Of a DNA stretch of 64,000 bases, positions 4,861 to 62,520 are shown piece after piece. The stretch lies in contig OX597819.1 of the NCBI GenBank assembly GCA_951406725.2, positions 91,326,001 to 91,390,000 on the forward strand. The letters run 5' to 3'. Under the pieces are notes generated by a model that saw nothing but the letters and a program-made list of their open reading frames with translations, did no database searches and had not been told where the DNA came from. The DNA is from Octopus vulgaris (lineage: Eukaryota). A program made the position numbers and the translations under genes. Each line of letters starts with the position of its first letter. Within the stretch, counting starts at the first letter, position 1.

Positions 4861-4980
4861 AAAAGTGTTAACAAGCAATAATAAATCTCTGAACAAGGTA
4901 TAGACAGTAACTGCACGACAATGTGCAGTTACTGTCTATACTTTGTTCTGAGATTTATTATTGCTTGTTTTACACTCTTT
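4861..4980. repeat. Near-perfect inverted repeat (arms 4861-4916 and 4923-4980, 6-nt loop)
   Basis: acaagcaataataaatctctgaacaaggtatagacagtaactgcac / gtgcagttactgtctatactttgttctgagatttattattgcttgt. Confidence 0.95.
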
Positions 4981-9900: not shown

Positions 9901-10102
9901 CAGGACCAGGCCAACATATATGTATTATGTTTATACACACACATACATACATACATACATATATACATACATACATCTACACTAAACAAAAATGAGCTAA
10001 GAGAAATAACTCAGAGTAGCCAGTGGCATGAATATGAGCATAGACCAAAAACCAGATTTGCCAAAACTTTAAAGTCACTATCAACATTATATATAAAATA
10101 TA

Positions 10103-20769: not shown

Positions 20770-21978
20770 CATCATCAATTTCAAAGTCAAACTGCACCAT
20801 CATCATCATCATCGTCATCTGTAATTGCTTATTGTCGGGAAAACTATTATTTAACGCACACACACACACACAATAATGTTTCGTTTTGAATATGTTACGA
20901 TTACATTCATATTAAAATTTATGAATTAAAGACTTCTTGCATTGATAAAAAGCCCGCAAATCTGCCGAGGAAAGCTGAATCAATTGAAATTATCCACAGT
21001 ATTCATAACTGGTGCTCATTTTAAAGTTTCCGAGGATTTAGAAAAAGCGCAGTTGACCACAGAGAGATTTTCCTTTTCTTTTCTTTAAAGAAAAAGTATC
21101 AGTGACTTTTTCAGGGATTCCGTGCATAGTAAGATGAATTGAGTACTTAACCCGAATAGCGTAGCTAGCGGAGGGTTGGGTGGGAGTGATCCGCAGAACG
21201 GTGCTTTTAAGGTGCAGGCACTTTTGAGTCTGCTGTATAAGCTTCTCCAAGGGACGATGGCGGGGACGAGAATGGCAGCAACCTCAAAGGCTGCCCCTCG
21301 CAAGACACACTACTTAACAACCCGAATGTTTGCAAAAGGAACTCGGGGTTACCCAAATAGTGTGTGTGTGAACCCAACAAAGTGGTCGTTCGAATTGCGT
21401 GAGAGAGCAGTTAAATTTCTCCCCTATCATCTCTTAAATTACGAAAGGACACGATTGCTTGTTCCTGTCCCTCTACAATATATAGGAAATAATCAAGCAT
21501 GCCTTATTCAAGATAAACATTAAGTTCCTTGTTTTTATATATTAATTTCCTTTTCTCAGTACGAAATACACCTATAAACAACGTTTTATTTTATATTTGA
21601 TTTTTTTTTAGTCGTGTAAGACCTATAATCAGAGGTGTTCCATTGATGATGACCATTCGGTCATAATTTCTGGCAGTGTGTTAACCAGTAGAGTCTTTGA
21701 TTTTGGGGGCTGCTCTTTCAACCCGGACAAAGCGTCAGCGAAGGAAAATGAAGCAAAGCAAGGGTTTATCGAACAAACCTATGACCAAAGGCGTTTTAGG
21801 CATGCTTTTAATAAATCTAGAACTTCTTGTCGCTCGCGTGATATATATATATATTGGCCTGCTCGCTTAGCCCGCGGGGTGGCGTCATTCGAAGGCTAAA
21901 ACAATGCGAACGCATTGTGACCAGCGATGTGTAACAACATCTGATGGTCTGGTCGGTCACGTGCGTATATATATATAT

Positions 21979-22040
<62 letters not shown>

Positions 22041-22075
22041 TATATTATATTATATTATATATATTATAATGGAAG

Positions 22076-22154
22076 GTGAACGTGACTACGAAGTTTCGTC
22101 GACAGTGGCTCGTCTGACGAACTACTGCCGGCGAAACTCTGAAGTCGCAATCAC
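22076..22154. ncRNA. Imperfect 79-nt palindrome made of two head-to-head hammerhead halves
   Basis: Centre at 22115; plus strand CUGACGA..GAAA-CU cuga AG-UC, minus strand CAGACGA..GAAA-CU ucgu AG-UC. Confidence 0.6.
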
Positions 22155-22784
22155 TTAGCATTTCGTTTGAATAAAAAAAAAATACATTCTATTCACTTTA
22201 ATGCTTTTTAAGGCATTCCACACGATACCCGAAACAGAATTTAACTAATTTTAGAATATAAATTCGTGGAAGCGACGATATCCAACTATAAAGCCAAACA
22301 CGAAGGAAAAGGGCCGTGAAAATGAAACAGGCGCTGGCATAGCCTGTGTATGGGAAGAAGTTTGCTTCCAAACCACATAGTTCCAGAAAAAAAGTATGAA
22401 GTCACGTTACTGACTGTACCTCTCCCCTCTCCCCCCACCTAGCTTGCATGCACTGGAGCAGCAGAATAAAACTTTCAGCGAAACAACATTCACTGAAGTC
22501 GCTAAAGTCCTGAAGCATAAAATAAAAGTCAACAATGCACTCGCCTGTTGAGAAAGGTGCATTGTTTTAGGAAAATTATATGGTTGGAGCTGCTATTGCT
22601 ATTACTGTTACTGCTTAACCCAGTGGTCCCAAACCACCAGGCCGCGGACCAGCAGTGGGTCGTGGATCATTTAGTACCGGGCGCACAGAAAGGATAAATT
22701 AAAAATTTATTTTTATATTTTATTGACCATACCAGTCTGTAGGACGTTTTTGCATTATATATGTATTATTATGCAATACATGAA

Positions 22785-24520: not shown

Positions 24521-25180
24521 TTATAGTGAGCTGATAATATTAACATCTTGAAATTCATCTTAGACAGAATCTTAAGGCTCATTTAGATATTCATTAGAAA
24601 CAGTTTCATCAACGATTAATGCTCTAGAAAGAGTATCATGTACATGTAAATCTTTCTCAGGTTGTACGTGATTCTGAGATGTCTTTGCATGAGTAAAATC
24701 CTTTTCCTTACTCGTTGTGCGAATAGACAAAAATTCTTCCGGAAAATCTATACTAATGGTTTTTGATCAGTTTCAACCAATACCGCCTTTATGTACACAT
24801 ACTTGTAGAACTGTCTACACCCAAAGACTATGACTAGCAGTACCTTCTCTAGTTGTGAGTAGCTGGGGTTTTTTTTTTGGGGGGGGGGGTTACCGTTAAT
24901 GTACGTGATGCATAGGTGATAGAATGATTATCTCATAATATTATGTTCCTAGACCATCTTTTGAGCTGTCTACAGAAAGTATGCTTGTTTTCTTGGCATC
25001 GGAATACTTTAGAACTGGAGCGTTTGTTATCAGATCTTTTACTTTATCAAAGCTCTTCCGGTGAATATAATTCCATGCAAATTCTCTGTTATCTTTAGTA
25101 AGCTCATGTAATGGTGCTGAAACGTTACATAAATTAGAAATAAATTCAGCAATATACGTGGCCATTCCTATAAAACTAAG

Positions 25181-25400
25181 TAGAAAGGGTGCTGAAAAGT
25201 TCCTGGCTTTGGGTAAAAGAAAATACAAGAAGATCAGTTAATTATGATATTATCTAATATATCCCCCTCTCAGATTCACTCACTTATTGCAGTGACCCTT
25301 CACTTTTCCTAAAACCTACAAAAGAACTCGGAAGGTTGGGCCTCCAACGAGGCCTGTCACGACACCCTTAAAGCCAGGAATTTTTCAGCACTTCCTTGTA
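25181..25400. mobile_element. Mariner-like MITE inserted in gypsy pol
   Basis: TIRs ta-gaaagggtgctgaaaagttcctggcttt / aaagccaggaatttttcagcacttccttg-ta, TA flanks. Confidence 0.85.
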
Positions 25401-55369: not shown

Positions 55370-55905
55370 CCAATCGTGGCCGTTTGCTAGACTCCTCTTC
55401 CCCCTGTGCTGGTGGTACGTAAAAAACACCCACTACACTCACAGAGTGGATGATGTTAGGAAGGGCATCCAGCTGTAGAAACACTGCCAAACCAGACTTG
55501 AGCCTGGTGCAGCCTCCATGGCTTACCAGACCCTGGTCGAACCGTCCAACCCATGCTAGCATGGAAAACGGACGTTAAATGATGATGATGATGATATATA
55601 TATATCATCATCATCGTTTAGCGTCCGCTTTCCATGCTCGCATGGATTGGACGGTTTGACCAGGTCTGGGAAGCCAGGAGGCTGCACCAGGCTCCAGTCT
55701 GATCTGGCAGTGTTTCTACAGCTGGATGCCCTTCCTAACGCCAACCACTCCGTGAATGTAGTGGGTGCTTTTTACGTGCCACTGGCACAGGTGCCAGACG
55801 AGGCTGGCAAATGACCATGATCGGATGGTGCTTTTTACGTGCCACCGGCACGGGGGCCAGGCGAGGCTGGCAACGGCCACGAACAGATGGTGTTTTTTAC
55901 CATCC
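55370..55905. repeat. Tail-to-tail inverted pair of RTE-tail elements
   Basis: ~55370-55595 (+) is the reverse complement of ~55605-55820, separated by a short (TA)n. Confidence 0.9.
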
Positions 55906-59275: not shown

Positions 59276-59403
59276 ATGCAGTACGATTGTTTCATGCGAC
59301 TCCATTTAATTGAACAATGCAATCATTACATCAATTTAAAACATGCAGCTGAAGATTGCTCTACATTTTAAATTGATGTAATGATTGCATTGTTCAATTA
59401 AAT
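59276..59403. ncRNA. Hammerhead ribozyme split by an inversion with a 38-bp duplicated loop
   Basis: Plus strand AUGCAG-CUGAAGA (59343-59355); minus strand GAAA-C aauc G-UA-CUGCAU (59293-59276); perfect IR 59304-59341 / 59366-59403. Confidence 0.75.
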
Positions 59404-62373: not shown

Positions 62374-62520
62374 CGAACTCAGAAACTTGGGGTTAGTAGC
62401 TCGCGCTCTTAACCACTATGCCCATGGGCATATGGCATAGTGGTTAAGAGTGCAGGCTACTAACCCCAAGATTTCAAGTCCAATTCCAGGCAGTGACCTG
62501 AATAATAATAATAAAAATAA
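62140..62520 (-). mobile_element. tRNA-headed SINE-like element carrying an HHR, with a head-to-head inverted second head
   Basis: Minus strand: A box ggcatagtggttaag, B box gagttcgatt, (AAT)n, then HHR; a plus-strand copy of the head at 62426-62520. Confidence 0.75.
62223..62268 (-). ncRNA. Minimal type I hammerhead ribozyme
   Basis: GACAC-CUGAUGA-au GCUG gaggguauau CAGC u-GAAA-CG-UU-GUGUU; palindrome AACGUU. Confidence 0.7.

Follow-up and report, generated by a model that had tools for sequence, protein, structure and literature searches.

The hairpin locus

The window analysed here is a 64,000-nucleotide stretch of Octopus vulgaris DNA, and it holds an imperfect hairpin that lies on contig C6 of a 2.8-Gb genome. 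The stem is 39-41 bp long. As originally predicted, its arms are organized around T22115: an arm-versus-arm comparison gave matches at 29 of 39 positions, and folding of the region as a single hairpin gave z = -4.30, a value equalled by none of 200 shuffles. The axis corresponds to core position U4 of a hammerhead ribozyme (-18 relative to G12), so that two hammerhead units are indeed fused head-to-head at the core. The long, direct arm occupies 22112..22193 of the plus strand and consists of a minimal type I hammerhead unit followed by ∼47 nt of 3′ tail. The short, inverted arm occupies 22068..22118 of the minus strand and carries the same unit, as also seen in the arm comparison. A profile built from 35 window-like copies, with the window itself left out, recovers the two arms at E = 1.3e-18 and E = 7.4e-10, respectively. 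At the junction (22112..22118), the arms have a 7-nt overlap in common, GTC-T-GAC.

The tail is found on one arm only. The right arm runs to ∼22193, and the left arm stops near 22068, where its tail ends ∼16 nt past the cut site and gives way to AT-rich repeat. This adjoining microsatellite of (TA)n, (TAGA)n and (TTATA)n (21966..22067) is likely the target site of an insertion. A target-site duplication was searched for at the window locus and none was found, in an old copy whose left side abuts microsatellite. Mismatches between the arms comprise nine transitions and two transversions, and G-U pairs are split five to four between the strands, as expected of neutral decay. In sequencing runs from organisms A and B the hairpin was recovered without differences, and runs X5 and X6 left it partly uncovered and were uninformative. 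Among the public runs listed as carrying the sequence none was of RNA, which says nothing about its expression.

The surrounding sequence is rich in repeats. Very high-copy pieces flank the hairpin at 21854-21956 and 22347-22386, with depths in the millions and in the hundreds of thousands, respectively. Four other hairpins in the window (4880-4960, 55558-55640, 59315-59400 and 62386-62470) fold more strongly and have no hammerhead boxes by eye; the last of these looks derived from a common SINE-like repeat. The 105 ORFs of the window gave a single Pfam match, to PF17919 (RT RNase H; E = 6e-8) at 24944-25237 on the minus strand, which is likely the remnant of an LTR retrotransposon. Pfam identified no host gene among these ORFs.

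Hammerhead cores of the two arms

The core boxes were found on each strand as originally read. On the plus strand (22114..22146), CUGACGA (22114-20) is followed by the 12 nt of helix II (22121-32), GAAA (22133-36), helix III as CU-CUGA-AG, and UC, with the GUC cut site at 22144-46. The minus strand, from 22116 to 22084, reads CAGACGA, 12 nt of helix II, GAAA, helix III as CU-UCGU-AG, and UC, and again includes GUC. The plus arm thus has the CUGANGA and GAAA boxes, the NUH cut site and the type I order, and in the minus arm U4 has changed to A. Where the original prediction spoke of ribozyme halves, we find nearly whole type I hammerheads that miss most of the 5′ strand of helix I.

Both arms are predicted to be catalytically dead, with no self-cleavage. 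Only two of the four helix II pairs remain in each, and in the plus arm the 10.1-11.1 pair has been lost (A-C). Hammerhead folds are predicted at +7.7 and +4.4 kcal/mol, compared with -45.7 and -41.4 kcal/mol for the hairpin. The proposal that the hairpin blocks catalysis therefore holds in part: the hairpin is predicted to exclude the hammerhead fold, but it is not required for silencing because helix II is already broken in each arm alone, and the hammerhead fold is predicted to be disfavoured even for either arm by itself. Rfam hammerhead families had no match at the window locus even at E ≤ 10, and nothing in the window reached the Rfam gathering level.

A dispersed hammerhead repeat family

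The two arms are members of a dispersed repeat family whose layout is that of a type I hammerhead. Five degenerate patterns matched the genome 4, 6, 14, 13 and 16 times, and their reversed controls 1, 0, 0, 0 and 0 times, so the motif is present beyond chance; members found by such patterns lie on many contigs. A pattern running from helix III through the cut site into the beginning of the tail had 976 matches in the genome (control, 0), the majority of which are sister subfamilies with other helix II sequences. By comparison, a DNA search with the hairpin as query, a method that misses old copies, returned only its own locus. We fetched 134 loci, of which 56 retain at least six of the seven bases of the 5′ box. 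The window-like copies among them were chosen with window-derived patterns, and the conservation of their core is therefore inflated and partly selected. The hammerhead ancestry that had been proposed is upheld by the helices of this family, as well as by the leave-window-out profile. Looking for non-inverted relatives with a stem I was a check proposed at the outset; such relatives exist, with a helix I of 3-4 bp.

Family members also correct the original reading of stem II as three pairs around a 6-nt loop. Among the 17 copies of the window's length class (12-nt), helix II is 4 bp around a 4-nt loop, with pairs 1 to 4 formed in 11, 14, 16 and 14 copies, respectively. Pair 2 is C-G in 14 of these 17 copies and is flipped to G-C in 14 of 28 copies of the main sister class. 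Likewise, pair 3 of helix I is U-A in 8 of 17 window-class copies and A-U in 17 of 28 sister copies. Compensatory change between subfamilies thus supports both helices, through two events only. In the best-kept copies helix III is a palindromic decamer, CTTCGAAG in 19 of the 28 sister copies. Both window arms deviate from the decamer at one or two bases, and the difference between their third loops, first taken for variation that keeps the structure, is better read as decay of this one palindrome. The subfamilies also differ at the core: an extra base follows A9 in the sister subfamily, and the window subfamily has none between 9 and 10.1.

Two further members were noticed in passing. At 10057-10087 of the window (plus strand) lies another fragment of the same hammerhead superfamily, which retains helix III, the cut site and the first part of the tail, with a TA run at its end (sister profile, E = 0.009). 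A third window-class unit occurs at L013 1220-1309 (minus strand), ∼200 nt from the main copy at that locus and on the opposite strand.

Membership of a repeat family bears on whether the hairpin could be a microRNA precursor, original or recruited. Its stem of 39-41 bp and its z-score of -4.3 would suit one, and octopus has many novel miRNA families (PMC9699675). The top Rfam match is the mir-981 / mir-76 precursor (RF01926) on the minus strand (16 bits, E = 0.2), which is similar in hairpin size and has a 12-nt exact match to one arm. However, the gathering threshold is 51 bits and the true mir-981 locus lies elsewhere, on C4, at 63.3 bits. The 12 common bases omit the seed, which differs, and include arm-specific substitutions, and the sequence is explained by the repeat family. 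We have therefore dropped the mir-981 identity as a likely chance match. In organism C, a ∼42-nt piece of the right arm (22133-22174) is unchanged where the flanking contig has 14 differences in 175 positions, but this piece was recovered by exact 31-mers, so its identity was selected. The wobble pairs, at five to four, have no strand bias. Finally, six 12-mers from the arms were absent from the literature searched, a weak negative because MirGeneDB and data S2-S4 of PMC9699675 were outside its scope; six were likewise absent from the searchable supplements of that paper, whose data files S1-S4 lay outside the search. A microRNA origin is, on balance, highly improbable.

Recurrence of the head-to-head form

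Head-to-head arrangements recur throughout the family. With a cut-off above the 99th percentile of the scores of 913 controls, an inverted arm adjoins 44 of the 134 loci, the window included, and 9 of 36 in the window-like set. An earlier test of 50 loci had found nine with controls inflated by microsatellites, and a retest of the same number found 16. When a sister copy served as query in an independent DNA search, a short inverted arm lay beside 9 of 40 scored copies. Other hammerhead families here also occur head-to-head, including 4 of 30 loci of Rfam Hammerhead_1, as well as L112 and L262. The palindrome at L262 (4630-4745) is near-perfect and young, and comprises an unrelated hammerhead with 8 nt between the cores.

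The positions of the axes are informative about how these palindromes arose. In 34 of the 44 loci the axis falls at -30 to -10 relative to G12 (C3 lies at -19 to -21), and the full range is -63 to +6, with junction sequences that are mostly unlike. Axes near the start of the core but at different bases indicate that each palindrome was likely built at insertion and not copied as a unit. The palindromic form is thus multicopy in the sense that it recurs, but not as one multiplied unit. The arms are typically unequal: one long and one short arm were seen in 21 of 29 sister palindromes (30 were examined and one was dropped for a poor arm), by a measure of the ends that is rough in AT-rich flanks. 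Insertion into microsatellite, (TA)n or other, was judged by eye at many loci in addition to that of the window. The idea that inverted arms start at the cleavage site was considered and did not hold up, as only 4 of 44 cases have pairing that begins at +14 to +17.

The original prediction envisaged a one-off inversion seeded by the palindrome in the core. As stated, this is not supported: about one third of examined loci are inverted whatever their junction, and the GTC-T-GAC overlap is accordingly at most a junction microhomology. A related account is that a single hammerhead copy was later folded back on GTC-T-GAC by a local DNA template switch, or that the palindrome moves as a MITE. The 7-nt junction overlap common to both arms would fit it, as would the proposal of self-priming at such palindromes (PMC3846280) and the slightly greater similarity of arms within a sister copy than across copies (0.78 versus 0.755, P = 0.001). 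Yet the inverted loci make up one third of the total, their axes spread over 70 nt and their junctions mostly differ, and in 8 of 25 copies the arms disagree at a two-state site. A MITE would have a fixed length, equal termini and the same junction; here the outer ends are unequal in length within a copy, the axes range as above and two thirds of copies have no inverted arm. We regard fold-back or MITE origin as improbable in the extreme.

Probable links to Penelope-like elements

The sister subfamily connects these hammerheads to protein-coding elements. Some of its copies share upstream sequence, of up to ∼0.9 kb, and at L152 this sequence runs into a decayed ORF. When the C-terminal 58 residues of that ORF were used as a query, the sister hammerhead was found 0.9-1.4 kb downstream of the endonuclease end and on the same strand at 7 of the 30 loci fetched, the query among them. 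An intact 1,091-aa ORF at L252 (900-4172), matched in its RT or endonuclease by three of the seven (L249-L251), is of the Hydra type, with RWR, DKT, CxCX5C, CxxC and CxH motifs, and is a relative with 39% identity over 61 residues. Hydra-clade Penelope-like elements (PLEs) are described as having marks of the RWR, DKT, CxCX5C, CxxC and CxH type and as inserting in (TA)n (PMC8557442). By these motifs alone, the decayed RT/GIY-YIG ORFs linked to the sister subfamily would be assigned to the Hydra clade. The decayed endonuclease end had no match in a protein database search, Pfam recognises neither this end nor the 1,091-aa ORF, and the 7 kb fetched around the L252 ORF contains no match to the hammerhead pattern. 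The L252 ORF also has long asparagine-rich inserts, like those of Adineta Penelope elements (PMC3846280).

Promoter-like sequence lies upstream of the sister hammerhead. Of 10 sister copies with an upstream extension, four have a TATA box at -54 to -59 and a fifth has a variant. The box stands ∼35 nt before C3, a position from which we infer that transcription would start a few bases before helix I.

For the window subfamily the connection is indirect. Its 36 copies gave no convincing ORF link and no shared upstream sequence. With a sister-only profile, matches to the window arms are weak (E = 0.17 and 0.53), and 25 of the 36 window-like copies match at E ≤ 1. The link from window to sister subfamily therefore rests on their common helix III and cut site and a similar tail. 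One ORF-linked candidate in the window subfamily, L282, was discarded because other repeats separate its hammerhead from the ORF, and the ORF fragments near L030, L069, L145, L161, L167 and L282 were judged to be independent neighbours.

The lack of ORFs and of shared upstream sequence in these 36 copies would also be expected if the unit were a protein-less repeat, such as a retrozyme or a short parasite, mobilized by PLE enzymes, with its hairpin formed in the same way. Retrozymes have themselves been argued to derive from the pseudo-LTRs (pLTRs) of PLEs (bioRxiv 10.64898/2026.07.22.740005; PMC7229834). Non-LTR retrozymes are tandem monomers of 170-400 nt with a hammerhead in each, whereas the window contains no tandem monomer and the locus has no second direct copy nearby. 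Moreover, the sister subfamily shares this helix III and cut site, and its upstream sequence continues into an ORF. A retrozyme-like unit thus seems unlikely, and we favour a PLE terminus.

Several other sequences were considered as the parent and set aside. One PLE family that is young and retains an intact 781-aa RT + GIY-YIG ORF (L134 1245-3590 and L186-L191) carries another hammerhead and was ruled out. In its pLTR, CCAAT and TGACGTC motifs are repeated and a TATA box and a likely intron are present; the hammerhead there has U in place of C3. A 1.4-kb stretch common to L157 and L162 proved to be a Tc1 element. At both loci (on C1), the Tc1-type transposon directly follows the long end of the sister unit, at ∼+145 from G12, and is 82% identical over 1.4 kb; the transposon may have targeted the TA end by chance, or the two loci may share a composite.

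Interpretation and proposed mechanism

We conclude, with a probability of about 0.85, that the hairpin comprises two decayed copies of a dispersed hammerhead repeat arranged head-to-head, that the repeat is likely the pLTR end of a PLE, and that the copies were likely joined at insertion into a TA-rich microsatellite. It is an ordinary fossil rather than a novel ribozyme.

A plausible course of events can be outlined from published PLE biochemistry. Purified PLE protein nicks and extends both target strands in vitro, and it starts at two internal sites that bound the tail, with no need for hammerhead cleavage (PMC11167929). If the TATA box of the sister subfamily is a guide, the element RNA would begin a few bases before helix I. 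Each of the two nicked target ends could then prime reverse transcription, one at a near and the other at a far start site within the tail. Both cDNA copies would run off the 5′ end of the RNA and be joined there via a few matching bases, e.g. GTC/GAC. Such run-off and joining would account for an axis at the beginning of the core and for one long and one short arm. Since then both arms have decayed, mainly by transitions. The priming steps in this outline are reconstructed from DNA fossils alone.

More tentatively, such stumps may be a fossil record of PLE integration, in which the two nicks are primed on separate RNAs, with near and far starts and run-off before helix I, so that a single palindrome can combine arms from different subfamily variants. 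We consider this possible, at somewhat less than even odds. It would follow from two RNA templates that different variants meet in one palindrome, an outcome that self-priming on a single template cannot give. The arms disagree at the two-state site in the 8 of 25 copies noted above, compared with 6 A-T changes among 696 bases in conserved columns. This disagreement is a weak hint of two templates, as the site may mutate fast and its linkage to a second site is loose. A literature search for PLE integration by twin priming or inversion, judged by titles, found none.

The single locus, an old stump with roughly a thousand relatives or more, matters little. It does carry a caution, in that stumps of this kind resemble microRNA precursors or designed ribozyme pairs. 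As a set, the family could bear on how PLEs make head-to-head ends, for which self-priming on an antisense template (PMC3846280) and priming at both nicked strands (PMC11167929) are the alternatives. Younger families are better suited than the window copy for testing this mechanism, and L262 is one such.

Comparison with known systems

The closest parallels are the inverted pLTRs of EN+ PLEs (Arkhipova et al. 2013, PMC3846280; Craig et al. 2021, PMC8557442). The first of these studies describes inverted pLTRs that meet head-to-head at a palindromic junction, carry the tail on one side and contain a TATA box with an initiator, and it proposes self-priming on an antisense template for them (PMC3846280). 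Like these, the window copies are inverted and joined at their 5′ ends, with a palindromic overlap at the junction. Further likenesses to pLTR insertions in the same two studies include the one-sided tail, a pLTR in which an initiator-like site follows a TATA box, and insertion into microsatellite. In contrast to the insertions described there, that in the window is ∼125 bp with no ORF, its axis lies at the first core bases and no target-site duplication is left. As for the Hydra clade of PMC8557442, the link holds for the sister subfamily only.

The hammerheads themselves are comparable to the minimal type I hammerheads of metazoan PLEs (Cervera and de la Peña 2014, PMC4209133). That study describes dual hammerhead motifs in PLEs on opposite strands 100-700 bp apart, whereas the cores in the window overlap, with a spacing of zero. 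Unlike the hammerheads described there, helix II here is 4 bp, and both window arms have lost pairs from it; the extra base between 9 and 10.1 that is typical of PLE minimal hammerheads is missing in the window subfamily. Nonetheless, the likenesses extend to the core boxes, G10.1-C11.1, the short helix I and the palindromic helix III. The genomic setting is also alike, with many variable hammerhead families per genome that are mostly solo.
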